This document shows, piece after piece, positions 1-52,563 of a DNA stretch of 64,000 bases (within the stretch, counting starts at the first letter, position 1; every line of letters begins with the position of its first letter). The translations under genes were made by a program, and so were the position numbers. The notes under the pieces are model-generated. The model ran no database searches. It was not told where the DNA came from and saw only the letters and a list, made by a program, of their open reading frames with translations. The stretch is from Psammoneis japonica (Eukaryota), in assembly GCA_008632985.1 (NCBI GenBank), contig QPGO01000133.1:62001-126000 (forward strand). The letters run 5' to 3'.

Positions 1-1
1 T

Positions 2-500
2 TAGATTCTGATTGGTCTGAGAAGCAACTGAAAGAAACGAAGCAAGGCGTGCTTCGGTGCTGACGGGAGCCAAATTGCATTGTGTGACTCCGGCTGAGAT
101 TGGTTCGGACATCATCACAAAAGGTAAGTTGTTTTCTTTGTTGTGCGGGAACTCGAGCGCATCCCCTTTCGGAAGAGTGAGGGTTGCTTTGTTTCCTCGT
201 ACGTGACATTCACCTTGGTTTCCATTCTCTTGAAAACAGGCTTGAGGGCTGAAGAGTCGAATGGAAGCGTCGGGAACACAGTGGGCTCGCGTTCGGACGG
301 TCCGGATTACATTCCAACAATCGATTGCGTCCCATTCCACGAAACCTTGACCAACTGCTCGGGTGCTGGAGGACAATCCGTTGATGGCAGTGGCACCAAT
401 GGGTTCTAGCGGTCCTGCAAAGTCACCCAAGTGGGGTGTGAGCGACGAAGATGCTCCTGTGTCAAGAACAACAGGTGCGTCGACAGGTGGGCACGATGTC
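2..500 (-). pseudogene. Copia pol, aspartic protease region (not in the ORF track because it runs off the edge)
   Basis: Manual translation: VDAPVVLDTGASSSLTPHLGDF...VGQGFVEWDAID...RTRAHCVPDASIRLFSPQACFQE...SQTNQNL. DTG at 455-463. AHCVP and PQACF stand where AYYVP and PQAYF are expected. Confidence 0.8.
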
Positions 501-1684
501 AATGCTTGACATTGGCGGCCTTCGAGATCTCTTGTGTCATTGAAGGATTTGATGTGCTGCGTTGGATCATCGGTCAACCATGGTGGGTCCGGCTTGGATG
601 CAGCGACGTGAGATGGACCTGTCGTGGTCTGGTGAGAGAACATGGCTGCTCCACCGAAACCACTCGTAAAGGTTGCTGTTGTCGTGCGTGACAGGTTGGT
701 TGCGATGCAAGAGAGCGTCGGCGCTTGACCACAAGCTCGCAACATTTCGGAAGAGGCAAGTGTCTTGATCAAATGGAGCTGTTCTAAAGGATCAATGCCT
801 TGAACAAATTCGTCTAACGAACAACCGCACTGCATGTCGCACATGATCCAGGTTTGGTGTAACAGTCGGTGCTTGATGCGGTAGAACTCTTCTAGTTCGA
901 AAGCTTCAGGGTCGTCTGGAGGTGCAAAAGGTGAGGGCTCCGTTCGTGTCGCGGAGCTACGAGGTTTGGTCCTCAGGTGGTCACCTGGAGGATCAAGCAA
1001 AGTGACGAAATCAGTTAAAGTCGCACCATGAGGAAACTCGTACATCTCGGAAGGTAGATGCAACAGGCGATGTTTGATTTGAGAATGGGCTTCTGCGGCC
1101 TCTTGTTGAGGATCGACGCAGGCAAATCTGGGTGGTCTCGTTTTCCCAGGTTTGAATCGACATCTCGATCTTGAGAGTTTCCACGACTTGGATTTTCGAC
1201 AGGAGCGATCCGGATCGGCTGCCGTTGTGTTGTCCGGAACAGGAGTTCGGCGCTGTTTGCGCCAAGTCGTTGGATGAAGGAAGGACCACAAGGGGTCTCT
1301 GCGTGGGATTCGAACTGGGTGCCGATCCAAGTGGCGAACCTGAGAATGATGTGTGATCCGAGTTCGATCAGGAGGACGACGAAATGAGGTCGGTTCGACA
1401 GCAGGAACAACAGCAAAGTCGGGAAGATCGTCGTGTGAAAGCGAAGGATTCTTGGAAAAGAGAAGCAAGCAGAACAAACATCCACCTGCTAAAACAAACA
1501 GCAACTGACAAATCGACGAAACTGCTTCGATCCCTCCCTCTCCAAGAATCTGGAGAGTGAACCACAGGAGCAAAAAATGACCAACCGACAAATGAGCCTG
1601 GACATCCCTTCCAGGAGCGGACGGTTGGTTGAAAAGGCAAGAAGAGAGGGCCACACGCTCAGGAGAGGAGGCGTGCCCGAAGCT

Positions 1685-3169
1685 TCAGGTGAAGGAGGCG
1701 AAGAGGCCGGACACAGTTTCGACCATCTCCTTCTTGGCATTGGCAATGGCGAGGTCACGATCTGTGACGGGAGCGGAAGCCGGTGCCGGAGCGGGCGCAG
1801 CGGCCGGAGCGGGAGAAGGTGCAGCGGCAGGAGTGGAGGCAACGTTCCCCGTCTCAGTCACCGGGTGCCAGCGCTTGGTTTTGCAATGATGGCAATGATC
1901 CTTGCCATCAATGTTGCGGCGACTGTCATCACTCTTTTCGGCTTCAGTCGGTGGCTGCCATTTCTTGGGAATGGTCTTGGCAGAGGGACCGGAAGAGGAG
2001 GATCCCGAAGAGTTGTTCTTGCGTTGAGCTCGTTTCGTGTCAAAGAAGAGCTTCTTGTTGGCACGAACACGAGCGTCGTCGACCGGTGTCTTGCAGTCAC
2101 ACAAAGGATGAGGGCCGCCACAGTTAAAACAAGTGACGACTCCCGCAACGAACGAAGTTGCTTGTTTCTTGGCAGACACGCCGGACCACTTGTCGGAGGA
2201 GACAAGAGCGAGACACTCGCCTTTGGCAAAGAACAAAATGTCATCCACCGCAGCAGTCGGTGCTGCAGTCGTCGAGCCCGATTGCTTGAGTTTGGAGGTC
2301 TTGGAGTCCTTGGTGAGGTGCTCGAAGAGAGAATTGAACTCGGGAACACTCGACGTTTGAAAGACTTTGGTGAGATTCTCCAGAAAATCAGTGGGAATGA
2401 CAGACTGTCCTTTCTGATCCTGGAGATTAGCGAGGCGAGAACAGCCACCGCGAACAAGAGGTGCGACTTTGCTTGCATCTTCTCCATCGAAGTCGGTGAT
2501 CTTGAGGTTGGTCATGTTGGAAACCAAACAACGAGCAGCCTCTTCGGAGTTGCTCTGAAGGAGTTTCATCATGAGAACGAAGAAAAGAGGTCCGCCCTGC
2601 TCTTCCTGATCACATTTGAGGTGCGTCTCGTTGACCTTCTTCTGCAGTGCAACGGACGCGTTCCGCTCGAAGCAGTCGTGAGCAAGACGAAGGTTTTGGC
2701 TCGCCCAAGTCCCACCGGGGTCCTCGAGCATGGTTGAGTGCCATTTGTTGCTTGCGGCGACCTCCGCTGCGGTGATCGTGGAGCATTCCTTGCAAAGATC
2801 ACGCGTCGTGAATTTATCTGGGTCGATGATGGTGAAGACGTCATCCATGTCACACTTGACATGGTTCGAACGCATGGTTGAAATGGACATCGCGAGGTCA
2901 CAAGCATCCTCGAGCTTGTCAGGATCGTTGATGTTGACGTTGAGGAGGTCAAATTTTGTCTGCTGTTTTGAAGTCGCCTTCAGAAAGAGATCGTTGAGCT
3001 TGTCAGGATCCAGCCTGTTCCTCTGCGCCTCAGTGTAGAGGGCAGTGAGAGTGTCTTGCGACGCTTTCGGCGTTGCGCGGACTTTCACCTTCCGTCCATC
3101 AATGGTCACCTCGGACATGCTGGCTGGCGGAGAAGGAGGGAGTGGAATGCTCGCTGCTTTGCTCGGCAT
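1685..3169 (-). pseudogene. Copia gag-like protein with zinc knuckle
   Basis: 494-aa ORF with CFNCGGPHPLCDC knuckle and EQGGPLFF motif. Only one Tyr in the whole ORF. Confidence 0.8.
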
Positions 3170-3642
3170 GCGAATTGCGCGAGAAAGTGCAGATTCTTCG
3201 GATGACGGTTAGTTGAATTGTCGCTGTCCGTGCGGATGTGTGCGCGTTGTTCTGCAATGCGAAAGACAGTTGCTTGACGGTCTTGGACAGCAACAGAGCG
3301 TCGAAAGTTCCGGATTTCGTCAGTTATGACGACTCGGTCGCCCACACGAAAATCCGCGATGGTCAGCTCCCGTGTGGTTGAAGTAGAAGTGCGAGCGGCT
3401 CCGGCTCACGTTGGCGCAGTGAGGCGATTCTGCCGTTCTCTTTCTGCGGCAATGCGACGAACAAGCTCCACTTCTTGAAGTTGCAGGGCTTGTAGTTGTT
3501 CAATGAGGTCGTCAAGTGTCGCAGAGTTCCTTTCGGACATGTGCAACACTCACGTAGAATTGTACGTAAAGAATGTACGGAGCTCACTTCTCGTCCACCG
3601 GAGAGAAAGAGATGAGCGCAGGAGTGATCAAGCGTGATGCTT

Positions 3643-5679: not shown

Positions 5680-6170
5680 AGTAGCAGTGTTTACAATGTG
5701 TGGTGTTTCATAGTTTGTTCGTCTCTAAATGAGAATAGGCTTCCTCTTCGGCTTCGGCGAAAACAATTTCAGTGAGCCCCGCCCCTGCCCCCTGCCCCCT
5801 GCTGCTGTCGGCACCAACAGCCGGATGCGCAAATGTCTTCGTGGGTTCGGCTGCGAAGGCTGGTGGCTGCACGTGATTTCGATCCCCCCGGAGGTGAGCG
5901 CTAAAAATCCTCGAAAAGCGACCCGAACACAGCTCACGAGTTCACCAGTGATGTCCCCATGTTGTTGCCGGTGCAAGGGCACATCACTTGTTTGGCATGT
6001 TTCTGGTGTCTCACCTGTGGTGATTCCTTTCCAGAAAATCCATCCTTCCCCACCTGCAATGTCGATCACCCATTGCCCCCCACCACCAGCAATGTGGCCG
6101 TTGTTTTGACCATGATTTCCCCTCACCGGCAAAGCCATTTCCCCTCGCCAGCAGTGTCGATCCCCCCCCC

Positions 6171-6177
6171 NNNNNNN
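6171..6177. other. Assembly gap (7 N) among short degenerate repeats
   Basis: NNNNNNN flanked by C runs and repeated GGCAAAGCCATTTCCCCTC. Confidence 0.95.
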
Positions 6178-6812
6178 CCCGCCAGCAATCTCCCCTTCGA
6201 CTGGCCCCCTTGTTCACCCTCCATTGGCAAAGCCATTTCCCCTCACCTGTGATGTCCGTCGCTCGTTTCTCCCGATTTCTCCTTTCTGATGTCATGGCCG
6301 TTGCCCCTCACCTGCGGCACCAATTGCCCGCTTCCTCCACACCTGCAACAAGTGGTCCCTGGGATGCAACATTGTTTGGTGTGCTGTGCTGTGATGCCGT
6401 TGCACCCGCCATTGACCCTGCTGCGCCATCGTCATTGTTGCAACAACTTTGTTGTTGCCATCACATTGCACATGCTTCTGCTGTCCACTTCTTGATGCTC
6501 TCGGTCATTGTTGTTGGCATCATCATGTCCTTCATGTCGGCAGAAAAAAGCAACAACTGCGATGGTGTCACACCTGATGACTCTGCTGCCATTGGCCATT
6601 CTGCACCCCAGCACACTGCTGCTCCCCCCAGCTGTTCAACAAGCACTTTGTTGGGCATCGGCAGAGACACAATGCTTCTCTTTGTTTTGAGGAATGTCCG
6701 GCTTGTGGTTGTCATGTCGCTGATTCCTGTGGGCAAGTGTCTCTTGGTTGTCATGAACATCCTTGGCTCATCCACCTCAGCTGTGGTCTGCGCACCTTGT
6801 CTTCATGCTGGG

Positions 6813-7432
6813 GCTTTTGCCATGCTTGCGAATCGTCCAGCCAGTTCCGCGAACTGGTTCATGGCAGCTTTGACACAAGATCGTCCCAACAGTGCTTTCT
6901 TCAATGTCACAACAAAGCTCGTCACACTCACACTGTTGCTTTTTCTTCCACAACACCTTCTGCAGATGAATCTTCCTCTGCTTCATTTCAAGATGATGGT
7001 GCCTTTGCATTCCTTGCCTCTGACTGTTGTTTGTCTGACAACAATGGCTCCAGAGCTGTTGAGGTGAATGCTGACAATTGGCTCTTGGTGGCTGCGGAAT
7101 TCAGCAACACTTTGGCTTTTGCCATGCTTGCAAATTGTCCAGCCAATTTTGCAAACCGGTTCATGGCAGCTTTGATGCAAGATTGTCCCAACGGCACCCT
7201 CTTCAATGTCGCAACAAAGCTTGCTGCACTCACGTTGTTGCTTTTTCTTCCATGACACCCTCCGCGGCTGAATCTCTGCCTGCTTCATTTGAAGATGATG
7301 GTGCCTTTGCATCCCTGGATGACTGTGCCACAGATGCTGCCTCTGGCTGTTGTCTGTCTGACAACAATGGCCCCAGAGCTGTTGAGGTGAATGCCAACAA
7401 TTGGCTCTCGGTGATCCCGGAATCCAACAACA
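6813..7432. repeat. Tandem duplication, ~300-bp unit
   Basis: GCTTTTGCCATGCTTGC...CCAGAGCTGTTGAGGTGAATGC occurs from ~6813 and again from ~7115. Confidence 0.85.
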
Positions 7433-9120: not shown

Positions 9121-9668
9121 GAGCGGAAGGTGTGGGAGACATGAGGGGCAGCAGGAGGCATCGAAGTGGCTGCTGAATCAGAGAGAGATGATGGCAAAGG
9201 TGTGTGGGAGAGAAAGAGATGGCAAAGGGTGGCGGGACCACAGCAACGTCAGGAGCACCAAAAGAGTTCTCAAGGCAGTGGTCAATGCACAGAAGAAATT
9301 TGTCAAAGGAAAGCAGGGAGGCAGGAACCTGATGGACAAAAGGAGCGGGGAGTTCAAGGACAGCCACTTCACAGTCACAGAGGCGCTTGCAAATGGAGTC
9401 AGCAAGGGCTGGGGATGGTGTGCAAATTCTTGGATCAACGGCACAAGCAAGTGCCAGGAAGGGAAAGAACAATGGGTTGAAAGTGGTGCCAAGCTTGTGA
9501 AGGAAGCAGTGGACCCAGGGAGGTCAGGAAAATGATGGGAGTCTTTTGGGAGAGCAGGGGGGGACCAAGGGATCAAAAAGAGGAAAGGCAAAATGGGGCG
9601 GCAGTGGAAGGATCACAATCGGAGCAGGAAGAAGATTCAGATGGGCAGCAAGCAGAGGTGTGGGGTGG

Positions 9669-10102
9669 TGTGCAGTGTGCCTCGCCACTGGACAACACGG
9701 CGAGACCGTGCATGAGCCTCTTGTGCGTGGCAACGCAGTGTTGTTGACACGCACCTGGGAAGCACGACCACAGGAGGGCGTGGCTCTAGGTCTCAGGCAA
9801 TTCCAGAAGGATGCTAAGAGAGCATCCGTGTGAAGCACACTGGCCCGTCGTCTGGCCCACGATGGTGGCGTGATTCCACACGATGACATCACTCGTGCAC
9901 AGTGCGTGATGGCTTGATTCGCACGATCCACAATGTGAGTGCACGATCGATTTGATGCAATCCAAATGTGAACGAACAGGGATTTGGCAAGATTCCCCAT
10001 TCACACGATCCCACTTTCTCCACTCTAAACTAGCTCACAATTTTCACAACGACAAAGTCGCAACACATCTTCTTTTTCAGTGCCTGGCACACACACAGGG
10101 CA
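9669..10102 (+). repeat. Gypsy 5' LTR
   Basis: Direct repeat of 13787-14218. Confidence 0.85.
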
Positions 10103-11789
10103 CAGCGACATTGCTCCCGCACGAAACTGCGAAATGTTGGCAGGACCGACAAATCTCAAAACGACCATGAAGAAGCGGATTGAGCCGCCGATTCCGTTTG
10201 CACGGCCGGAGAAGAAAGAGCCACAGCAGGGCGAGTGCCAGACGTTCAAACTGCGCAACAACCCCACTGATCCGGACAGTCCAATGCACGAGATGGGCAT
10301 TCCGTGCCTTTCTGCGGTTGCATGCGAGACACTCCCAATCTTTCTGCGCAACGTGGACCGTGTGCACGAAGGACAAAACATGACCACCGGGCCAGCAAAA
10401 TTTGCCCTTGTGCGTGACCTGCTGCAGGGCGATGCTCTGACGTCATTCAATGATGCCGCTGACAAGCAGGCATCCCAAACCAACGCTGCGTGCGCAGCAT
10501 GCGTCGCGAAGCTAAAGGAAAGCATCTTCCCACATGGGGCGGCACCATTGCAGAAGCGTCATCTGAGGCGCTTCATGCGCAAGCCCGCAGAGGTTTCCAC
10601 TCGTGACTGCATCGCGAGGGCTGTTGAAATCAACGGCCGCATCTCTCAGTTTCCACCCGTGACGGAGGATGGAGAAGCACCGGCACCATTGCCTGATGAC
10701 GAACTGTGCGACATGTTCGAGTGCGGTGTGCCGAACGCATGGCAGAAGTTCATGACGCTACAAAATTTTGACCCGTTGGCGCACACTGTCACCGAATTTG
10801 CACAGTTCTGCGAGCGCATCGAGCAGGTCGAGCTTGCCGAAGGCAACCTGGACCAACACACTGGGGTTCCACGTAAGCAGGGATGTAGAACAGACAATCC
10901 TGAGTCGTTGATCACGACCCAACCGAACACCCGCGTGAAACGTGTCAAGACTGGACATTCCAGCAACGGAGGCAGCAAGCCCAATGCAAAACCTCGGAAT
11001 GAGGAAGACATTGATGCTCTCATCAGATCGAAGGTCGAGGAGTTCTTTGCCAACGCTCAGAAAAAGCGCAAGGCACGCGAGGAGGAGCTCAATCACTTCC
11101 GCGACCTCAACTTAAGTGATTCCGAAGATTCGGACACTTGCCGACACGATGCAGGCAGTTTTAATGCATTGGATGAATGCATCAATGAACAACTGAATTA
11201 CCATCGTACACGTGTTGCAGGCCAATCCCGCAAACGAGTTAAAAAGACTCATCTTGCTCCAATCTTGTTCACAGCTATGAATGCTAAACATGGCAAGGGC
11301 AAGACTCAAACCATTAAGGCACTGCTAGATAGTGGCGCCAGCAGTGCTCTACTCGACAGTCGATACTGTAAACGTCTGCGAAGCCATTCAACGGCTGAGA
11401 CAAAATGGACTACGGTAGCAGGCTCGTTCAGTACGTCTAACGACTGTACCGTTAAATTTTGGTTACCAGAATTATCCGAAACTGCAGAACTTAAACATAC
11501 CGTCCACGTACACAACGGAAAGTTGGGCAAGTACGATATGATTATTGGACGTGACATTCTGGAGACACAAGGCATTGATATTGTCTTCTCTAAACAGATG
11601 ATAGAGTGGCCATTAGTCAATGGAGAAGTACCAATGAGGCACGTAGATGCTACGGTAGAAACCTCCTTCTATCTTCAAGATCCAGAAGCCTTATCTTCAG
11701 AAACCGACCGGATTTCGCGTATTTTAGACGCTAAGTACGCGCCGGCCTGCCTCAAAGACATAACGCGAGAGGCAATAGACTTTCTATAG
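10080..11789 (+). pseudogene. Gypsy gag plus aspartic protease
   Basis: TFKLRNNP...GQNMTTGPAKFALVRDLLQGDAL gag motifs; ALLDSGAS and YDMIIGRDIL protease motifs. Confidence 0.85.
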
Positions 11790-11806
11790 TTCAACAAAAC
11801 GACCTT

Positions 11807-13504
11807 TTGGCACTATTGAAACGCCATCAGTCCTTATTTGATGGGACATTAGGAGAATGGAAGGGAGAACCCTATCATATCCAACTCAAGGAGGGTGTAG
11901 AACCATACCACGCTCGTCCGTATAAAGTACCTCGTGCGTACGAAGCTACGCTACGTAAAGAAGTAGAACGCCTAGCACGTGTCGGTGTTCCCAAACGCGT
12001 TAACCGATCCCAATGGGCAGCTCCATCATTTATCATGCCGAAGAAAGATTTAACGGTGCGCTTTGTTAATGATTTCAGAGAGCTGAATAAACGGATCAAG
12101 CGATTGCCTTGTCCGATTCCTCACATCCAAGATGTGCCACTTGAGCTCGAAGGCTTCATGTGGGCTGCATCACTGGACTCAAATGTGGGCCATTGTCATG
12201 TCCGATTGGATGCTGATGGCAAGAAGCTCTGCACGCTCATCTTCCCGTGGGGCAAGCATGAGATGCAGGCATTGCCCATGGGATCACGCAACTTGCCAGA
12301 CATTTTCCAAGAACGCATGTCAGGCTCATTTGAAGATCTGTCGTTCGTTCGAATGCACTCAGATGACCTTCTCGTCGTGACGAAAGGCACCCATGAAGAT
12401 CACCTCAACAAACTTGAAGAAGTTTCATTGAGGGTCCAGAAAGCAGGACTAAAAGTTGACGCAACTAAATCTCACTTCTGTCAAACCCAATTAGAGTGCT
12501 TGGGTCATCTGGTCAACAGAGACGGAGTGCGACCAACACCTGACAAAGTCGACGCCATTGGGCGAATCGCGACCCCAGCCAATGAACGCGACCTGCGCTC
12601 ATTTGTTGGCATGGTGAACTGCCACCGTGACACGTGGATCAGATGTTCTGAAGTCTTGGCTCTGCTGACACGACTGGCAAGCGAGACTGTTGAGTGGGAG
12701 TGGACGTCCGTTGAAGACGAGGCGTTCGAAACCGTCAAACGGGTGACATCGGATGATGTTTCATTGTCACATCCTGATTTTAATGAACCCTTTGAGACAC
12801 ATGCCGATGCCTCTAAATGTCAATTGGGAGCAGTTTTGTCCCAAGACAATGAACCTGTCGCCTTTCACAGCAGAAAGCTCAACAGTGCGCAATTAAATTG
12901 TGCAACAACGGAGAGAGAATTGCTCACCATTGTGGAGACGTTGAAAGAATTTCGAACGATTCTCCTTGGTCATCGTGCAATTGTGTGTGCTGATCATAAA
13001 AATCTCATGTGCAAAGCACTCAATGCCGAGCGCGTTGTGCGCTGGCGGTCAACATGCGAAGAATGCGGTCCCAAATTACGTCATGTTAAGGGCACCCACA
13101 ACCTGGTCGCTGACGCTCTTGGTCGCCTTCGGCCAGCACCCAGCTTGCCTTCCGAGGCCAATCCGGATGTAAAAGACACTCCATTGAGTCGTCCTTTGCA
13201 TGAAGCTTTTAGTGCAGATGCTCAAGATGAGGCATCTCTGCCTGTTAGCTTCAAGCGCATTCAAAAAGCACAACAAAAGGACAAGCGCCTGCTCTCACGA
13301 GCTGAGGACTCGCCCGACTGCTCCATTCGCGCGTGTCGTGGGGGAGGGTCATCACGACAGTCAATCTGTCATAAGGACAAAATCGCAGCACCACAGTCAT
13401 TGCAGGTTCCGCCAACTGAATGGCGCCACGAGACACTGTGTCACCCAGGTGAGACACATGCGGAAACATCTGTTGCCCAGCACTTCTGCTGGCCTGGCAT
13501 GTAG
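11807..13504 (+). pseudogene. Gypsy RT, RNase H and integrase zinc-binding start, inactivated
   Basis: DFRELNKRI, FPWGK, LPMG, MHSDD (in place of YxDD), ADASKCQLGAV, AFHSRKL, ELLTIVETLKEFR, ADHKNL, NLVADAL, WRHETLCHPG. Confidence 0.92.
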
Positions 13505-13786
13505 AAACCAGAAAGCAGAAGCTTGTCCACTTAAACAACAAGCGTGAAAATCAGAAATGCAAGGAGCATCAATGTGCCGCAGGGCAATTGGCACTTGTCA
13601 AACAGGAGCAATCCTCTAAATGCGGTTCTGACAGCTGTGCAGGACCCGCCAGAGTTGTCCGTGTGTGTGACGACGGCACGTTGCGCACCCAGAACGGAGC
13701 GCTGACAGATGCGTGCAATCTACGGCAGATTGCACCCCATCACCAGTGAGACATCCTGTCACTTAACGGCCCTGATCATGGGGGAG

Positions 13787-14218
13787 TGTGCAGCATGCCT
13801 CGATGCTGGACAACACGGTGAGACCGTGCACAAGCCTCTTGTGCGTGGCAACGCAGCATTGTCAACACGTGCCTGGGAAGCACGACCACAGGAGGGCGTG
13901 GCTCTGGGTCAAGCAATTCCAGAAGGATGCCAAGAGAGCATCCGTGTGAAGCACACTGGCCTGTCGTCTGGCCCACGATGGTGGCGTGATTCCACACGAT
14001 GACATCACTCGTGCACAGCGCGTGATGGCTTGATTCGCACGATCCACAATGCGAACGCACGATCGATTTGATGCGATCCAAATGCGAACGAATGGGGATT
14101 TGGCAAGATTCCCCATTCGCACGATCCCACTTTCTCTGCTCCAAACCAGCTTGTGATTTTCACAATGACAAAGTCGCAACACATCTTCTTTTTCAGCGCC
14201 TGGTGCATGCATGGGGCA
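13787..14218 (+). repeat. Gypsy 3' LTR
   Basis: Direct repeat of 9669-10102, preceded by GGGGGAG. Confidence 0.85.
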
Positions 14219-14382
14219 GGTGTGATGCCAGGAGAAGTCTGGCAAATTGATGTCGGAGAGACACCGATGCAGTGGAGGCAGAGGCAAGAGATGCAGTGAG
14301 TCTTGGGGGAACGCCAGGTCTGGGCAGAGTCGAAGAGTGGGGTGTGGGAATGGACGGCAGAGAGAAGGCAGGAGTGCAGTGT

Positions 14383-14812
14383 GCATGCAGACAAAAGGTT
14401 GTTTTTGTCACGCCCTTTGTGACATTTAAAGGCTGTGACACGTCGCCGTGATGCATTGACTCTTGTTGGCAGCTGCATGTTGCACTCCTCCCCATGCATC
14501 ACGCGCAGAACTAACGTGTGCTGACACTGCACATTTTTGGCAGAACAGTGTGGGTGCGCACGAAGGAACACACAGAACTGCACAGAGTTTTGCGCGTTCG
14601 ACAGTGATCAACGTTGCTGCAGACAACTCCCGCTCAGGGTTTCGAACCCCTGGCCTCCTGCCTGATGGTTGCGCATTGAACCACTCCGCCATGAATTCAC
14701 AACGCAGCATGCATGCAGACAAAAGGTTGTTTTTGTCATGCCCTTTGTGACATTTAAAGGCTGTGACACGTCGCCATGATGCATTGACTCTTGTTGGCAG
14801 CTGCATGTTGCA
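14383..14812. repeat. ~100-bp direct repeat, copies ~328 bp apart
   Basis: GCATGCAGACAAAAGGTTGTTTTTGTCA...GGCAGCTGCATGTTGCA at ~14383 and ~14711. Confidence 0.85.
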
Positions 14813-37652: not shown

Positions 37653-38769
37653 TTATAGCGCAGGAGCATCCACACCAGCGGCCGTGTACTTGTCATAGAC
37701 AATTTGCACATCACGCTTTCCACCCATGATAATGGGACACTTGGCGTGAATCTCATCGGGCGTGAGTTCCAAGACACGTCCCACTTTTCCCTCGAAAAGA
37801 CCCGTGGACGCCACTCCATCGGCTTGTTCAATAATCATGGCCATGGGAATGCCTTCGTACAAGAGACGCAATTTGCCCTTGGGTGATTTCTTGTCGGCGG
37901 GGTACAAGTAGATGCCTCCGTAAAGGATGGTGCGATGAATGTCGGCCACCATACTTCCGACATAACGGGCGGCATACGACTCTGTCTTGAAGTGCTCGAC
38001 GGCATCCAACAGAGGCTGATCCCAATGCTTGGAGTTTCCCTCGTTACAGGAAAAGATTTTCTTTCCTCCATCGGAAGGAAACTTCATATCGGGTCTTGTA
38101 TGAACAAATTCCCCAATGGTGGGATCCAAACAAAACCCGTGAACCTTGCCTCCCCGAAAGGTAAAGACCATTTCCACGGCCGAACTGTACGCCACGTATC
38201 CTGCACAAATGCAATGCGCCCCACTCCGCAACAAATCCTTGGCGGTCCCGTCACTTCCGGGAGCACGCTCGTAGACGGAAAAAATAGTCCCCACACTGAC
38301 GTTGCAATCAATGTTGGACGACCCATCGAGCGGATCAAAGGCAACACAGAATTTACCGGATTTGCCCGGCGGAACGACGATGGGTTCTTCGTTTTCTTCG
38401 CTCACCAATACGGAACACACACCGGAATTGACGAGTGCGTTAATCATCATTTCGTTGCTCAACACGTCGAGCTTTTTTTGATCGTCACCCGTGGAATTGA
38501 CTTCACCGGCCAAACCGTAGAGTTGAGCGACACCGGCGCGTTTGACCGCCGACGTAATGAGCTTGCACGATGTGGCAATGGCATTCATTAAAATGACCAA
38601 ATCGTGATCGTTGCTCTGGCTCATGACGAACCGATTCAACGTGGGGGCGTCCTGAATTTGAAACAAGAAAATGATCAAGAAGAATGTTGTTAGAAGTATT
38701 CAAAATAGCGCATCCGATAGAGAGAACGCAAGTCATAAAGCGACGTACCGCATCAAACTGTTCCGTCAT
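37653..38769 (-). CDS. FBP: Fructose-1,6-bisphosphatase class I, probably cytosolic (exons 38749-38769 and 37653-38651)
   Basis: GDDQKKLDV, VSEE, FDPLDGSSNID, RYVGSMVAD, GKLRLLYE. Exon 1 MTEQFDA, then a 97-nt GT...CAG intron in frame. No signal peptide. Confidence 0.95.
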
Positions 38770-41700: not shown

Positions 41701-44399
41701 GCTGCACTTGAGCTTCATTGGAACACAAACAAGTGTGGCGCACCACAAACACTGCTTTGCATTTTGGACTTTCCATGCAGCAAAACAGACCAAGCCCTCT
41801 TTGGAAACTGAGACCTGCAGTGCCAACAAAAAAAATGCCAGGTGGAAACCGAGCAGATTGTTCCATCCCTTGCATGAGAAGAATGACAAAATGCAGAAAC
41901 GAACGGATGATTGAAGCCAGCCAAGTGGGTGAACTGGTGGGAACGTCGTTCGTGTCAGGCGCAGCCCCTGTTTCCCGACAACTTGTTTCTGTTGTTTTCT
42001 TGAAAAGCGTGCCAGTTGGCTGTGGTTTTCAGGGACGAGGCAACAAGAGAGCAACTGCCGGCGTGCTTTGGCCAGGGAGGGTCACTTCAAGGACCAAAAA
42101 TCAGGGGCTCGCATGGGGCTGAAACTCATGGTGTGAAAAAGGTCAAGTTCGAAGAGTGCGCATCCTGCAAGGCAACTCTGTTGACGGCCAAACACAATCT
42201 TGAAGCTGATGATGGGGAAGAGCACATCCGAGCATGTGTTCAATTCACAGAGACCGGTGCGACAGATGTTGCAATGCCTGATGGAGGCTGCAAGCTGACA
42301 GATTGCATCCAAGTGCAACCTGCGACTGAGGACATTGCGGCAATTCATGCACAAGATGATGATGTTTCTTTTGGCACCAAAGAAAGGGCTGCAGTGCACA
42401 CCATCACCAAGGTGTCTCTTTCCTGTTTGTCCAAGCCCCAAAGACTTTTGAGCTGAAAAGGGGGCACAAGATCGGAGTGGCTGTTTGTCGCTTGCATGAC
42501 ATTGGCCACAAGGATGCCGAAGCCCCGTCATTGATGGCTTGGTGGCTGGGTGTGGGCCAAGGCAACAAGCCTGCATTCACACGGGAGAAGTCACAGAAAT
42601 TTCTGAGAACGGCAAAACCTTTGGTCACAATGTCAACACTTTTTAAGGTTGCTCTGGTGCTCTTGTCTTTCTCCTTGACAAAGGACAGCCCGACAATTTG
42701 GGTTCAGACTTGTGTGGCCTGGCAGTTGGTGTTCACAGTGGGGGGCTCAACATCAGCAACAACCTTGCGTTTGAGCTGCTTTAACTGCTGTCAAGATGGA
42801 TTCCTGGCTGCTTTGCTGCCAAAATTTTTGCTGGCTCAGATTGCCAGCATGTCTTGTCATGCCTGCAGAGACCTGTCTGTGGAGCCGTCTGTTTTTTCAG
42901 GGACACAACACACATCAGCTTCTGCATTTTCAGGTTGAGCCAAAGAAGAAGGAACAGATTGTTTTTTGTGCTGGTGAACAGTGGTGTCATGGCAGGAGGT
43001 GTGCACAAAACTGAAGAGGGGGTCTGAGAATCTGGGACAATCTTTGCACACAATCCACCAAACACTGCAGGAGAGGCACTGGAGTGAAAATGCCCATTCA
43101 CAGGGGCACTTGTCAAAAGAAATTTGGGGCACAATTCCTGGCACTGAGGGCACTGGAGCAACTTTGTGGGGCAGTTTCTGCACAAAACACAGCAGACAGT
43201 GAAGCAGGGCCACAGCTTTGAAGGACATGCTGGAGAGAGCTGGCCTGAACACAGTGTCGGGTGGGTTCTGGCTGGGTGGAGTGTGCGCCACAATGGGAAA
43301 ATGACAGGGTGACAAAACAGAAGATGGCAGGTGCTGCAAAAAATTGTGCTGATGGGCAAAGGCATGTCATCAACAGAGAGGACATCACTGCAAGGAAAGG
43401 AGGTGGCAGCACCTTCAAAGAGGGGCTGGAAAGAACAAATGTGATGCAGAGCAGAGAGCAGCTCACAACAAAGGATGCTCTCACATTGTCGTGCAAGACC
43501 AAGACAGGATTGACACGCTGAGAGAGCCAGCTTCACCCATGCAGACTGGCCCAATGGAGGGATTTGATGACAACACAGACTTCCACATTGGCAGATCAAC
43601 CTCACTTTCTCCTCACAGCTTGACACACAATGTTGCAGCAGCAGGCCCCAGTCTGCATTTTCATCTTGTTTGGCAAAACTTCTGCACACACTGTCATTCA
43701 AAACGGCTTCTTTGCAGCCTTGCAAGAGCTTGCACTTGAGTGTCACAACAGGCAAGCCACAGATGAAGGGATTGCCCAGGTTTGCAACTTTTGTGATGTC
43801 TGCTTTGAGAGGTCTGTTGCTGTCAAAGCAGAAAAGGAGGATGACTTCAACCATCATGTCAACAGCTTGAGGAGCATTGGCCAAGGAGACTTTGCCAAAA
43901 CTTGAGAAGCCCTGCAAGCTGCTCATTAAATTTCAGTCATTTGCATTTTCTTTGACACATTTCATCATTGTGACCGATGTTTTCATTGTTCCATTTTTTG
44001 CCAGAAAAAGAATTTGAGAATTTTGCAGCTTCTCCTCATGCCTTTTGCTGATCATGGCTGATCTGTTGTTTGTTGGTTGTCACGTGGTGACGAATGTTGT
44101 GTGACAGGAATGAAACGTGGTGGTGCAATGCTCAGATCAGTTTGCTGTGTTGTCATCTGCATCACATTGTTCATTTTGTGACAGGTTTGGATGGATGCTG
44201 GACAGACGGAGGGAGAGTGCGTGGTGTTGGGTGCTGCAGCGTGCGTGCGGCGCATGTGAGACATGGAAAGAACATGGCAGAAATTGGTGATGAGTGCATC
44301 ACATTGTGTTTTTTTTCAACAGAGCGTTGCATGGAGTGCAACAAACAGTTCACAAATGCAGCCAACATGAGCAACAACAGAAGTGCAAAAATCACAGAC

Positions 44400-46249: not shown

Positions 46250-46680
46250 GCACCTGACAAGCGATGAGAGCAGATGTGTTGCAAAGTGCTGTTGTGAAAA
46301 TTGTGAGCTGATTTGCTCCAGAAAAAGTGCGGTCATGCAAACAGGGAATCATGCCAAATTTCCTTTCACTCGGGTGTTTTGCACTGCATCAAAACCATCG
46401 CTGTTTGTGCGCCATGGATTGCACGGATCAGGCCATCACATGTCTTCCACGAGTGATGTTGCTGCCACTGGGGGCAGACAAAGTGTCAGTGCCATGTGCG
46501 CAGATGCTCCCAGCATTCCTCTGAAATCTCCCAACCAAGCCAAGGAGCCATGCCCCTTCCTTTTGGATCGTGTTCTCCCCCCCAAGGTGCATCTGAGCAC
46601 AGTGCTGCTCTGCCGCACACCAGAGGCCAGAGGCCAGTGCACAGCCTTGCCACTTTGGCCAGCAGATGTGTGCTGCAATG
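46250..46680 (-). repeat. Diverged solo LTR related to the Gypsy LTRs
   Basis: AGATGTGTTGC..GTTGTGAAAATTGTGAGCT, GGGAATC.TGCCAAAT, GCCATCAC, CACGAGTGATGT and GATGCTC are colinear with the reverse complement of 9669-10102. Ends approximate. Confidence 0.65.
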
Positions 46681-48391
46681 GACCTCTCCAATGACGCACA
46701 TTTTGCCTGAGTGAGCAACCTTTTTTCTTGTTGTTGGTGTCAGGGGAGACACCCACCCATGATCTCCAAATTCTTTGAAGCTTGAGTGACAAAGGTGGAG
46801 ACCTTGCTGTTTGAAGTGTGGCAAAGTGGCCTTGATGATTTGAGCACTTTGCTTTTGTTGCCACACAACAAAGTCTGGCAGGCAAAGAGCTCTGTCAAAG
46901 ATGGTTGGCTGCTTGGCCACAAAAAGAAGCACACAGGCACTTGTCAGTTGATGACAAAGCTGTCTCACAGCATCACAGTGATTGGAGTGAATGACTTGTC
47001 TGTTGTGGAGAAAAGGCTGAGACAGATTCAATTGTGTTCTGTTGGCTCTGTCTTTCTTTAGCTCAACATTGCAGCGGGGACAAGATGGCAAAACTGTGCA
47101 GCCAACAACGAACCAACCTTGCAGCTGCAAACACAGCCCCATTGACAGATCCTGGGTGCTCCACCTGTGTTGCTTGGTTGCCTGAACAGAGAGAAGGCAC
47201 TTCAAAAATTGGTGCACAAGCCCAACACCAAACTGAGTGCCCCACAGAAACAAAGCAAAAGACAGACATGGCAGGGTGACTGACAAACAAATTGGCTGCA
47301 GCAGGTGAAGACAGGATCACAGTGCAGTGCTGCACGCATTTCAGCACAGATTGGAGACCAACAAAGACAGTGGTCTGTGCCCCCCATGCAAGTGCAGATT
47401 TGTCTTCTGCAATCTGCTTCTGTGCAAACATCTGGTGCGCCAGAAGCTTTTTCTCATGATGTCAGGCTGCAATGTTGCTGAGCTCAAGTGTGAGTTTTGC
47501 CTTCTGACAATGTTTGGGTGCTGTCATCCTTCCATTGGATTGGAGCCAATCTGGCAACGTGGCAACCAGATGTCATGGAAGGGCTGTTGTTTGTGGCGGG
47601 GGATCTGGTGTGGCAGAAGATCGGGCAAAAAAACTGGGCAGTGTGTTTCTTCGTTGTTTTTTTCCAACAACCTTCAGAAGCCATGTGTGTTTGAAATGAA
47701 TGTGAGGGATTTAATGGTGATGCTCACTTTTTTTCTTGCAACCAGGGGCCGCTGTGGCTTTGATGTTTGTGAAAACTTGCTTTGCAGCTTTGCTCTGCTG
47801 CCAACTGCGCACGAAGAAAACAGCAGTGAAGCATGTGGGTCAACCACCAGTGCTCCATGTCATTGAGGTGACACCCACATGATCAAGTTCATTGCTTTTG
47901 TTCTACAGAGGTTATTTTCATCACCACAAGGTGACAACAATTGTGCCGTCGTGGGCGCTGAATGTCATGTTGGTTCGACAGCGATGCGTGCATTATCATG
48001 GCGAAATCCGGGAAATGTTTTTCTACCTTATTCGTATCGATAGTTTTGAAAAGAGTATCAAATATATCAATATTTTGAAAAGAACATAAATAACCGCTTA
48101 TTCGTATGACTGCATTACATATATATGAATATTCACTTTCCCATGATAGAACCACAGTAATTCCAAACAATACATAGAAGTTTGATAATACTGTAGTCCT
48201 TTCAACGGCTATCGAAAAACGGCAATCCGGCGGGTGCGGCCGAGGGATTTTGTGAAGCGTTCAGCCCGCCTCACCGCTCAGCCAGAGTGAATAACGCAAC
48301 GCATTTTTGCCGCACCTACTACCAGGTAGGTAGCACCTATTTTGAGTAGTCTATCCCAATTATCCGCCTATCACTTGAATTAGATTGCGAC

Positions 48392-49800: not shown

Positions 49801-52563
49801 ATGCTAGAGTGAACGTTTCGCATTGTTTATTCCTTCGTTTCGCTAGCTTTAATTTATTTGAGTTTTACTCGTTTTCTTTGATCATGCTTTCACTGATGCC
49901 GACTAAGGAGTTGTTTGTTCTTACAGCTTTTGCCTTGTTTCCAGAGCGACAAGAACTGTGCTGCTGTAACAAGACAAGCTTTCACATTGCTGTGCTGATG
50001 TTGAACTAGTCTAGTTGTCGCTTTTACATCGTTTTGTGTAAGGTCGGAGAACATGAAAGTGTTCTTCAAGCAGGGTCTCAAACACTCGCTTCTTCAAATG
50101 GCATGGTGTGCGTCTCTGAAGAACTCGGCCAAGAACAAACACGAAACTCAAAGGGTCCACACAAGCCATGCATTTAACGACTGGGAAAGCTGCAGATGGC
50201 ACCCCTTCCAATGCCAGAAACTGATTAAGTGTCACATTTGGGGTTTCCTCCAATCCCAGCAACACTCGTTGGCGTGGCCTTGGGTTGGTGAATTGGGGTG
50301 TGTTTTTCTCTCCTTTTTCATTTGGCACTCTTTTGTGCCAAAAATCACTTGTGAGACACCTCCTTTGCTGTGCTTTGCATGGCTCCACAGCCACAAAATG
50401 TTGGCAAATGAGCATGACTGCCTTCAAAAATGTTGTCCTTTGCAGCCACCCCACACTGTGAAAATGGGCTCCAGCAATTGATCACGTTTTGTGGTGTTGT
50501 TTTCTCATGCTGTTTTTGCACTTGTTTCACAAGCTCCTCAAGCCATTTGGCTGTGAAGCAGTTCACTCAATTGCTCCCATGCATCATCAAGTGTCAGAGA
50601 GCAGTGGGCACTTGGACAAAAGCACACCAGATGAGATGCCTTTCCATGTCAGAAGCAGCAGTTGTGCATTTTCCTCATGTTGCCATCATGGCAAGAAAAA
50701 GTGGCCTGGTGTGTGCACTGACTTTGAAGCTTTGGCATTTGCAGGGGTCTGTGGAGAAACACAAGAAAAAACAAAAGATGGCCAAAGAGACAGATGCATG
50801 GACAAAGACATGACAGTGTGTGCACATGAATCAACCTCAACCACCAAAAATGGTCTGCATGTCATTCACAGCTCCACAGCCCCCCAGTCAGGGGCAATGG
50901 CAACACATGTGTTGCTCTTGTCACAAAGAGCTTGTTTCTCATGTGATGCTCCATTGCAGGAATGTTGGGTGAGTGCTTGCACACACAAACAACAACCCAG
51001 CAATGACCCAGCAGCAACTGCAGCACACAGTTGTTTCCATGCGAGGGTCTGCATCTGCACAAGATTGACAAAATGTCAACATTTTTGTTTTGTGTGTCCA
51101 CCACAGACAGCTGCTCCTTCAAGTCTCTTTGTTGCTCTGCACAGGACTTGCAAAAGCTCTGGCCACCCAGCTTGTTTGTGACAACAACAACAACAACAAC
51201 AACAAGTGTCCAAATGCCCCCAAACATGGAATGGACAAAGGGCCTGCCCCCGCATCTGTTGTCACAGCCAGCACTGGATCAACACCATCATCATTTCTTC
51301 CCTTGTGGGCTGGGCATGAAAGTCTGTTTGGTTGACAGTGAAGGCTGCACAACCACTTTTTTGCAAGGTTCCACAGCTGCTGAGCACAATTTTGCCAGAC
51401 TTGACTTGATGTGCAGATTGTCAAAGAGGGTTGAGCTGATCAAAAGCTTGGTCAGCAAATCAAGAATCAGTGTTCAAAGCTCATCTTCCAGCAGCACATG
51501 CCACATTGCAGCAGCAGTGCCACAGTCATCTGGCACATTTCCATTGTGCCCATTTTGAGTTTGGTGCATGCCTCAGTTTTCCACATTGAGCATTGTCTGT
51601 CACACAAAAGATGTGGCAAAGATGATGATGACAGCTGAGGCAATTCTGTGAACATGAGCTGCGATGCTGAGTGTCAAAGCTGGTGCAGCCAATCATGCAG
51701 CCAAATCCAGCAGCTCAAACTGGGAAAGAGGCTGCAACCTTTTTTTTCTGTTGTTGGTGCTGCCATGTGCTCACAACACTCTCATGCACCTGTTTCAGCA
51801 GCTGCCAAGAGACACTTCTTCAAGTGGCAGTTCTTGGGCCATGGACACATGTGGGCTTTCATCTGAGAAGTGCCCTCACTCAGCACAGTTCCATCCGGCC
51901 TTCATGCTGGACCTGCTGAAAACCACTTTTACAAACCACCACAAAAATTGCACACCATGACGACTGCCGCTGACATGCCATCGTGTGTGGCTCAACAACC
52001 TTTCAGTGTTTTCTGATGCCACTGACAGACTCGGTGGTGTGACTCTTTCATCTCAGATCACCAGGGTGGCTTCAGCATTGTCACAAAATGTCACAACCAT
52101 TAAAAGAAGGCATCAAAAAGTGTGTGGTGAATCTTCTCCATCAAACAGGGTTGCAGTCAAATGTGAGCTTGACATGCTTCATTCGACCATCAAGTCATGT
52201 GCAGCACGCATGATGGAAAGCTTTGTTGAACTGGGTTGTGCTGGAAAGTGTGCTCTTTGTGTCTCTTGCTGTGCCCGGTCTGTTGGGTTGAGAGGTTGTG
52301 ACTTGATGTTGTGCTGCACGGTGTGAAACAGCCAAAGGACTGAATTTGAGATGTGCTTGGTCTGTTTTGAGCAGCATTGCTGTGGCATTAGAGCTGTTCA
52401 AGGTTCTGTTGCTCACACAACCAATCCTCCAAACCCCAAGATCAATTCGGTGCATCATTTCATGCACCACAAGAAAAGCCCAGGTCAGCTCTTTGCGGAT
52501 GACGTTCGCGCCATTTCATGATCACGAACCGGCTGAAGATCTTGCAGAAGGAATGCAGGAGAT

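Follow-up and report, generated by a model that had tools for sequence, protein, structure and literature searches.

Repeat-induced point mutation (RIP), known from Neurospora and other ascomycetes, is a duplication-triggered process that changes C:G pairs to T:A, mainly by turning CpA/TpG into TpA, and that raises the AT content and creates stop codons. The APOBEC3 (G>A) and ADAR (A>G) enzymes are described, in animals, as sources of deaminase-type, context-dependent transition hypermutation that affects retroviruses and cripples retroelements; they act on RNA or on single-stranded complementary DNA (cDNA) before integration and mark one strand. Here we analyse a 64,000-nucleotide (nt) stretch of DNA from the diatom Psammoneis japonica (contig QPGO01000133.1, positions 62,001 to 126,000; hereafter referred to as the window, with positions counted from its first letter), focusing on positions 12100 to 13504. 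Judged from its sequence, this part is the reverse transcriptase (RT) and RNase H coding region of a single, fairly recent Ty3/Gypsy long terminal repeat (LTR) retrotransposon insertion. We propose, with a probability of roughly 0.8, that a host process acting on chromosomal DNA after integration converted TpA to TpG/CpA, in a form of hypermutation targeted by compartment to silent or foreign DNA. The proposal rests on a mutational signature restricted to TA, its presence on both strands, its timing after integration, its regional mosaic and its preference for particular neighbouring bases.

The closest described system is that of the chlorarachniophyte Bigelowiella natans (Mettrop et al., bioRxiv 10.64898/2026.01.13.699255). 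According to the main text of that preprint, 231 of 302 new mutations in mutation-accumulation lines fell in two integrated viral regions; the new mutations were nearly all A>G or T>C, all at TpA, and arose at about 6e-7 per site per generation, roughly 1000 times the background, in some lines only. The targets were integrated nucleocytoplasmic large DNA virus (NCLDV) and virophage DNA, and an ADAT2-like DNA adenine deaminase is the enzyme put forward by the authors. That main text contains none of the words 'context', 'flanking', 'diatom' and 'retrotransposon'.

The present locus resembles the B. natans case, as that text presents it, in that A>G/T>C changes at TpA give TpG or CpA according to the strand and are limited to foreign or silent blocks. 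The TpA-poor, CpA- and TpG-rich clusters of B. natans are enriched for RT and DDE domains, and the rate there lies orders of magnitude above background. In the window, A:T>G:C change is confined to TpA (50 TA-type changes versus 7 other A/T>G/C changes), both strands of integrated chromosomal DNA are hit, and the affected DNA is confined to blocks: 79 of the 128 500-bp bins are TA-poor and 33 normal, and host open reading frames (ORFs) have an observed/expected ratio (O/E) for TA of 0.44–0.66. The two cases differ in the host, here a stramenopile and not a chlorarachniophyte; in the target, here an LTR retrotransposon and repeat-rich DNA; and in extent, with near saturation here (pooled TA O/E 0.05) versus 0.45 in the NCLDV region. 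CpG decay accompanies the process here, which is known from its footprint and was not caught de novo.

With RIP the locus shares a dinucleotide-specific transition hypermutation of repeated or mobile chromosomal DNA that is dense, affects both strands and spares genes. However, the direction is opposite (TpA to CpA/TpG, with GC rising and no stop possible), so that the locus is not a case of RIP; TpA conversion may be viewed by analogy as the mirror image of fungal RIP, which would then be its functional counterpart. Unlike APOBEC3 and ADAR editing, the process hit both strands of each LTR after integration, and non-element DNA too. Full-text literature searches gave no report of TpA hypermutation in diatoms, and the B. 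natans preprint was the sole match that we found; one paper in which diatoms and hypermutation are both mentioned proved to be about something else. So far described from one chlorarachniophyte, in one 2026 preprint, TpA-directed hypermutation gains a second lineage with this locus.

Loss of conserved tyrosines in RT/RNase H

A preliminary description of this DNA held that, from position 12100 onwards, the RT/RNase H motifs had been destroyed with a single mutational signature that removes Tyr. We collected 120 relatives of the encoded proteins and aligned the three frames of the element to the best 80 of the 120, taking a column as conserved when at least 70% of the sequences agree. The 467 codons of 12100–13501 encode 0 Tyr, 23 His and 18 Cys; the 122 codons of the same ORF upstream of 12100 encode 4 Tyr, 4 His and 0 Cys, and the mean composition of the 120 relatives is 3.8% Tyr, 2.7% His and 1.2% Cys. 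At the conserved Tyr columns (at least 70% of 80 relatives), Tyr is kept in 4 of 4 upstream of 12100 and in 0 of 18 downstream (Fisher P = 1.4e-4). Because TAY codons contain TA, its conversion would turn all conserved downstream Tyr codons into His (CAY) or Cys (TGY), and the 18 lost columns now hold His (CAT/CAC) in nine, Cys (TGT/TGC) in seven, and Trp and Arg in one each. The coordinate 12100, given in the preliminary description as the start of the damage, is the right edge of a TA-normal island within the element.

Eight of the ten altered motifs named in the preliminary description (GHCH, GKHE, HSDD, LECLGH, VNCHR, HPDF, AFHSRKL and LNCATTE) lie on columns that are 78–100% Tyr in the relatives and are thus corroborated, whereas the case is weaker at EECGP (F in 50 and Y in 30 of 80) and HFCWP (Y in 32 and T in 25 of 80). 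The catalytic Y-x-DD motif reads H-S-DD here, and its first column is Y in 80 of 80 relatives. The proposal that HSDD is a former YLDD accordingly holds for the Y column, but the S column is I in 75 of 80 and L in 5 of 80 relatives, Ty3 having L. In the Ty3 sequence of structure 4OL8, Y-L-DD faces H-S-DD and N-Y-Y-R faces N-C-H-R, and Tyr stands opposite several such His/Cys residues. The RVT_1 domain scores 45.7 bits here versus 88.8–99.0 bits in five of five intact relatives.

A transition signature confined to TA

Between 12100 and 13750, 326 columns are conserved, 231 of which are kept and 95 changed. Among the changes, 48 need one TA>CA/TG step and two need two such steps; the rest comprise 7 CpG-type changes, 8 other single transitions, 11 single transversions and 19 multi-step changes. 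Six of the non-TA rows, at 13453–13489 (five multi-step, one transversion), are artefacts of the overlap between the third frame and the pol frame and were dropped, after which TA-type steps alone explain 50 of the 89 changed conserved columns. A/T>G/C changes outside TA occur in 7 of the 326 columns. The single signature is therefore borne out, in that non-TA substitutions do not explain as many motif losses as TA-type ones.

The signature reaches well beyond tyrosine. Besides Y>H/C, the TA-type changes include L>S/P (from TTA/CTA), I>T (ATA) and V>A (GTA), and, following T-ending codons, K>E, N>D, T>A, I/M>V and S>G. Of the 50 TA-type missense changes only 16 are Y>H/C, and the view that the gene was inactivated through loss of Tyr is not supported as it was put. 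In a control stretch (11000–12099), 104 of 114 conserved columns are kept and two of the ten changes are TA-type, both at its right edge (12035 and 12065), so that TA-type changes number 50 in 320 columns of 12100–13750 versus 2 in 114 columns of the control (Fisher P = 1.6e-5).

We also carried out the reversal check suggested in the preliminary description, scoring each single transition per site against the column profile of the relatives, with no altered sequence built. Within 12100–13750, CA/TG>TA reversal improved the fit at 89 of 215 nonsynonymous candidates and gained 525.7 bits in sum. The matched control, CA/TG>CG at the same dinucleotides, improved 45 of 184 candidates (149.5 bits), other G/C>A/T changes improved 39 of 348 (103.4 bits) and other A/T>G/C changes 15 of 308 (24.7 bits). 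In the island the same four transition classes gained 40.7, 33.6, 34.4 and 34.4 bits, with no excess for CA/TG>TA. Among metagenome contigs one related locus was found, which at 43% identity is too distant to polarise DNA changes.

A few A>G changes stand in a CpA context and make new CpG: at 13424 (a Tyr column, now the Arg codon CGC), at 13672 (N>D, where other copies read CA) and at 10933. Such changes may reflect rare hits off target, or former TA that was hit twice.

Mutation of both LTRs after integration

The element is bounded by LTRs in direct orientation with TG...CA ends, the 5′ LTR (LTR5) at 9661–10102 (+) and the 3′ LTR (LTR3) at 13779–14218 (+), which are identical in 395 of 443 aligned columns. 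LTR5 retains 4 TA and 25 CG, and LTR3 retains 0 TA and 29 CG. Since the LTRs are identical at insertion, their differences arose after integration. At 13 places one LTR has CA where the other has TG, at 4 places LTR5 has TA where LTR3 has CA/TG, and at 10 places one LTR has CG where the other has CA/TG. The remaining differences in the 443 columns are three other transitions, two transversions and three indel columns.

At the 13 discordant places LTR5 has 4 TG and 9 CA, and LTR3 the reverse; TG and CA both occur in each LTR, so both strands of each LTR must have been hit, in events separate from those in its partner. The coding part carries 76 inferred converted sites (gain of at least 2 bits), comprising 32 T>C and 44 A>G, and these are interspersed (36 runs versus 38.0 ± 4.2 in shuffles, P = 0.36). 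Strand-coordinated, processive tracts thus find no support in runs tests of the coding sites or of the 13 LTR sites (P = 0.085), and the pattern is one of many independent hits instead of long single-strand tracts.

If each TA changes to CA or TG with equal chance, the 13 discordant places imply about 26 doubly converted sites; with the 4 half-converted ones, these would point to some 30 ancestral TA per LTR, which matches the density in the island. By this rough estimate about 56 of 60 LTR TAs are gone, versus 5 substitutions at other sites, and conversion at TA would exceed the background rate by two orders of magnitude or more and the CpG rate by a wide margin. Ages derived from LTR divergence are badly inflated under such a process: the LTRs here are 89% identical, with only 5 substitutions outside TA and CG steps. 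The element thus amounts to a natural experiment, in which the LTR pair times the process and shows both strands and an untouched kilobase serves as a built-in control.

An untouched island and a neighbour-base preference

The TA-normal island (11113–12088, +) contains 66 TA, with a TA O/E of 0.90 and a CpG O/E of 1.15, both computed over 11100–12099. To its left, 9661–11099 holds 8 TA (O/E 0.11), and to its right 12100–14218 holds 18 TA (O/E 0.15), the first TA after 12088 being at 12450. The CpG O/E of the element is 0.82–0.94, and GC rises from 0.45 to 0.52–0.55. The right edge spans about 130 bp, in which converted sites at 11976, 12037 and 12065 are interspersed among retained ones. On the left the transition is more gradual and runs from about 10900 to 11300. 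Non-TA changes, which would be fewer in a younger, gene-converted patch, affect 8 of 114 columns inside the island versus 39 of 320 outside (P = 0.16). The process may not yet have reached the island, the island may be protected from it, or the island may stem from gene conversion.

Other copies of the element were seen in a sequencing run (X1), available as contigs only from one sample, which contains 0.56 of the words of the stretch and whose pieces were placed at 80% likeness. Its 6023 contig pieces that match the element indicate that the family is abundant. The summed depth of these contigs over the island is not clearly below that of the flanks, although contig depth is not equivalent to copy number. 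The island also holds private non-TA sites, 11828 and 11991 among them, at which the window and other copies disagree. Between the run X1 contigs and the window there are 385 variable places, 370 of which are transitions. Among the variable places listed, 40 of 387, 23 lie in the element; as an illustration, 6 of these read TA where the window has CA/TG, and there are two pairs of CA versus TG. The same 23 include 3 that restore CG, 2 at which the window keeps CG and 8 other changes.

The TAs that survive outside the island share a neighbour-base pattern. YTAR accounts for 17 of 26 survivors and RTAY for 0 of 26, compared with 18 and 17 of the 66 island TAs, respectively (P = 0.0016). Across the window, survivors are over-represented at TTAA (7.0-fold), CTAA/TTAG (3.5-fold) and CTAG (2.7-fold), whereas ATAT (0 of 123), ATAG/CTAT, ATAC/GTAT and GTAC are nearly gone. 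This preference could help to identify the enzyme.

A regional mosaic across the window

The element is not alone in its loss of TA. Over the whole window the O/E values are 0.26 for TA, 1.52 for CA and 1.50 for TG, and about 60% of the window is TA-free. In 79 of the 128 500-bp bins TA O/E is below 0.2, with pooled values of 0.05 for TA, 1.70 for CA, 1.65 for TG and 0.42 for CG, whereas 33 of the 128 bins are normal, with pooled TA 0.68 and CG 1.03. With 79 bins cleared, an inactivation specific to the RT/RNase H gene or to the element is not what we find.

Loss of TA and loss of CpG are correlated (Spearman rho = 0.77). There are 59 TA-poor/CpG-poor and 20 TA-poor/CpG-normal bins, and none of the 49 bins with TA O/E of at least 0.2 is CpG-poor, which suggests an order of events in which quick TA loss is followed by slow CpG decay. 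The element belongs to the TA-poor/CpG-normal class and thus represents the early state, with TA mostly gone and CpG still present. The process therefore outruns CpG decay, and it acts in patches smaller than one element.

Host genes stand apart from the cleared blocks. The ORFs with host-gene Pfam domains (FBPase, rhomboid, K+ channel, two sulfotransferases and HYR) have TA O/E values of 0.44–0.66. The named matches of the FBPase gene (37656–38699, −) share 79–84% identity with it and are all from diatoms: Nitzschia inconspicua, Epithemia clementina, Amphora coffeiformis, Fistulifera solaris, Craspedostauros australis, Mayamaea pseudoterrestris, a Bacillariaceae metagenome-assembled genome and Attheya.

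At the left end of the window, 1–3208 (−) contains two long ORFs of 561 and 507 residues with TA O/E 0.05–0.17 and CpG O/E of about 1.0, which encode 2 and 1 Tyr, respectively, and many His and Cys. They probably belong to a further young mobile element that is likewise at the early stage, with TA gone and CpG kept. Seven N (an assembly gap or masked bases) lie at 6171–6177, where a TA-normal block meets a TA-free one.

Proposed mechanism and alternative explanations

In the mechanism we propose, a host process would act after integration to turn TpA into TpG/CpA, as an A:T>G:C transition on either strand of TA. Conversion would have been almost complete in each LTR, in the 5′ part of gag and in the RT, RNase H and integrase regions, sparing a central island of about 1 kb, and TTA, CTA, ATA and GTA codons, together with A-initial codons following T, would have been converted along with TAY. 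Most of the window's repeat-rich, CpG-decaying DNA would have lost its TA to the same process, with host genes spared. We infer a role of TA conversion as genome defence.

Several points weigh against this reading. First, 39 of the 89 changed conserved columns are not TA-type, and ordinary decay and CpG decay therefore also contribute. Second, ancestral states were taken from relatives that are at most 59% identical, not from DNA of the same family, so that the state assigned to a single site can be wrong. Third, the central island of about 1 kb is unconverted, and the mechanism does not account for it. Finally, run X1, whose platform is unrecorded, may be the window's own source and is not independent proof against a base-calling artefact.

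As for the enzymology, the footprint would tentatively fit an enzymatic deamination of adenine to inosine, read as G, at 5′-TA-3′ by a candidate deaminase guided by chromatin state; we regard this as possible, at somewhat less than even odds. To a similar degree, and equally short of an even chance, diatoms may own a dedicated, chromatin-guided DNA adenine-deaminase defence, a 'reverse RIP', that would strike new retrotransposons faster than CpG decays, with RTAY the most susceptible and YTAR a resistant context, in tracts smaller than an element whose edges are sharper than about 130 bp. If so, then together with the chlorarachniophyte case TpA hypermutation would count as a system of genome immunity that is both old and widespread in the SAR supergroup, and it would leave silent DNA filled with long open frames, as Tyr is recoded to His or Cys and stops are erased.

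A variant of the same TpA-specific, post-integration process invokes a modified base, such as hydroxymethylated or otherwise modified T, or N6-methyl-A, that mispairs or is misrepaired. Strand symmetry and neighbour dependence would fit a sequence-specific DNA-modifying enzyme, and the TA-poor bins are also the CpG-decaying ones, which are presumably methylated. However, nothing in the present data speaks for a modified base, and we know of no modification at TA in diatoms, which we count against this variant. The sole experimental precedent, B. natans, proposes deamination, without proof in the main text of the preprint. We therefore consider a modified base unlikely.

Editing before integration, by an ADAR-like enzyme on element RNA or by an APOBEC3-like deaminase on single-stranded cDNA, would have delivered the mutations ready-made with the insertion. 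The central unmutated stretch is reminiscent of the hypermutation gradients of retroviral cDNA. In addition, ADAR favours A after U, according to the Discussion of Mettrop et al. (bioRxiv 10.64898/2026.01.13.699255). Editing of sense RNA, however, predicts A>G only, and hence Tyr>Cys, whereas 9 of the 16 converted Tyr are His and 32 of the 76 converted sites are T>C; with each LTR hit on both strands, it is ruled out. Strand-specific editing of cDNA does not predict TG and CA together in each LTR at discordant sites. The non-element DNA on both sides of the element is equally TA-free, which speaks against any pre-integration editing, and we judge this explanation very improbable.

The pattern might also stem from assembly or base calling, if modified TA had been miscalled as C or G and the real DNA contained TA and an intact RT. 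The pattern is indeed extremely clean, the frame is open, and the source platform is unrecorded. Against such an artefact, a 475-nt run X1 contig matches 9400–9697, across the left junction, without a difference, and 1257 of the 6023 run X1 pieces are at least 99% alike; as run X1 is perhaps not independent and may be the window's source, this only weakens the artefact reading. CpG decay, an indel and a deletion are what real old DNA would show, the first being found in the TA-poor bins and the other two in the element; neighbouring genes from the same data keep TA O/E values of 0.44–0.66. We give an artefact very little credence.

Neutral decay, GC-biased gene conversion or a general avoidance of TpA, with no targeted process, has practically no standing and is rejected by the context specificity: TpA is mildly under-represented in most genomes, and even the normal bins here have a TA O/E of 0.68, but A/T>G/C changes outside TA are far outnumbered by TA-type ones (7 of 326 columns versus 50), about 56 of 60 LTR TAs are gone by our estimate as against 5 substitutions elsewhere in the 443 LTR columns, the shift occurs within about 130 bp at the edge near 12088–12100, and the catalytic residues are destroyed, so that selection is not keeping the gene.

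Open frames without selection

The hypermutation proposed here, acting after integration on TpA, also accounts for the open frame. The preliminary description had contrasted missense loss of Tyr with the creation of stops by RIP. It was right that the RT/RNase H frame is open, with no stop in 589 codons, but the open frame is a by-product of the process. Enumeration of the codons revealed that neither T>C before A nor A>G after T turns any sense codon into a stop. As TA>CA/TG cannot make stops and erases TAA and TAG, frames stay open, and this is no sign of selection. In contrast, 34 CAA/CAG/CGA/TGG codons in 12100–13501 would turn into stops under changes in the RIP direction. The protein-level read-out of the process is thus Tyr to His or Cys, with no stops.

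The same holds outside genes. TA-free DNA loses two of the three stop codons and gives rise to long spurious ORFs, and the TA-free non-coding DNA of the window contains ORFs of 200–380 residues in several frames. The blocks at 6024–7064, 42784–43932, 46489–47316 and 50462–51178 are TA-free and hold many overlapping ORFs, with TGA as the sole surviving stop, a trap for gene callers. No Pfam match was obtained for the TA-free ORFs at 42784–43932, 6024–7064, 2–1684 and 1688–3208. Annotation is affected in two ways, as mutated transposon proteins drop near or below the thresholds of family models and TA-free DNA yields spurious ORFs.

Architecture of the element and its other lesions

The whole element spans 9661–14218 and is flanked by a 4-bp target-site duplication, GGTG, whose left copy (9657–9660) directly precedes the TG start of the 5′ LTR and whose right copy (14219–14222) directly follows the 3′ LTR. 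The gag-protease ORF (10029–11789, +; 586 residues) is TA-depleted in its 5′ two thirds; it has weak aspartyl-protease matches of 17–18 bits, under the Pfam cut-offs, and its 3′ end aligns with the protease (PR) and linker of intact relatives. The RT–RNase H ORF (11735–13504, +; 589 residues), which Pfam, 4OL8 and the relatives place up to the start of the integrase (IN) zinc-finger region, matches RVT_1 (45.7 bits), RT_RNaseH_2 (90.8 bits) and RT_RNaseH (80.0 bits), and its best match among solved structures is the Ty3 RT/RNase H structure 4OL8 (E = 1.1e-45). The TA-stripped part of this ORF, 12100–13504 (+), is the part that has no Tyr in 467 codons. A remnant of the integrase C terminus follows in the third frame (13505–13749, +; 98 residues), likewise TA-stripped, with Y>C at 13573 and Y>H at 13738.

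The three frames align in the order PR–RT–RNase H–IN to the 80 relatives, with only the two ends of the integrase remaining, and the nearest proteins in a large protein collection are PR–RT–RH–IN polyproteins of at most 59% identity. The element shares with Ty3/Gypsy elements its TG...CA LTRs, the 4-bp target duplication and the order gag–PR–RT–RNase H–IN, whereas its catalytic motifs are not intact (H-S-DD in place of Y-x-DD, and no integrase HHCC or DDE core), which makes it a dead member of the class. Diatom Ty3/Gypsy elements have been named GyDi, as described by Maumus et al. (2009, PMC2806351), and by its Ty3/Gypsy class the present element would count as GyDi-like.

Beyond the TA-type missense changes, the sequence shows two further lesions that break the element: a frameshift that separates protease from RT, and the loss of about 230 integrase residues at about 13500. 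The alignment to intact relatives places the frameshift at about 11765–11790 (+): the gag-PR frame fits the relatives up to ...DITREA and the pol frame from NRLSIVQQ... on, whereas the relatives have one frame. The deletion joint lies at 13487–13505 (+), where the element lacks the remainder of the zinc finger together with the DDE core; HFCWPGM ends the pol frame, and alignment to the relatives starts again in the next frame at their ...W.YI..RKQ... region. Neither Integrase_H2C2 nor rve has a Pfam match in the element, whereas both are present in five of five relatives.

A self-BLAST revealed no second copy of the element in the 64-kb window; it returned only the LTR pair, a fragment at 46269–46459 and a short local repeat. 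The fragment (46269–46459, −) is 67–69% alike to the LTR of the element, lies within an old TA-free, CpG-poor block and is probably a decayed solo LTR or a relative. The local repeat is a 109-bp direct repeat (14376–14484 and 14704–14812; 96% identical) in TA-free DNA just 3′ of the 3′ LTR, and the very high summed depth of run X1 contigs over it indicates that this repeat is abundant.

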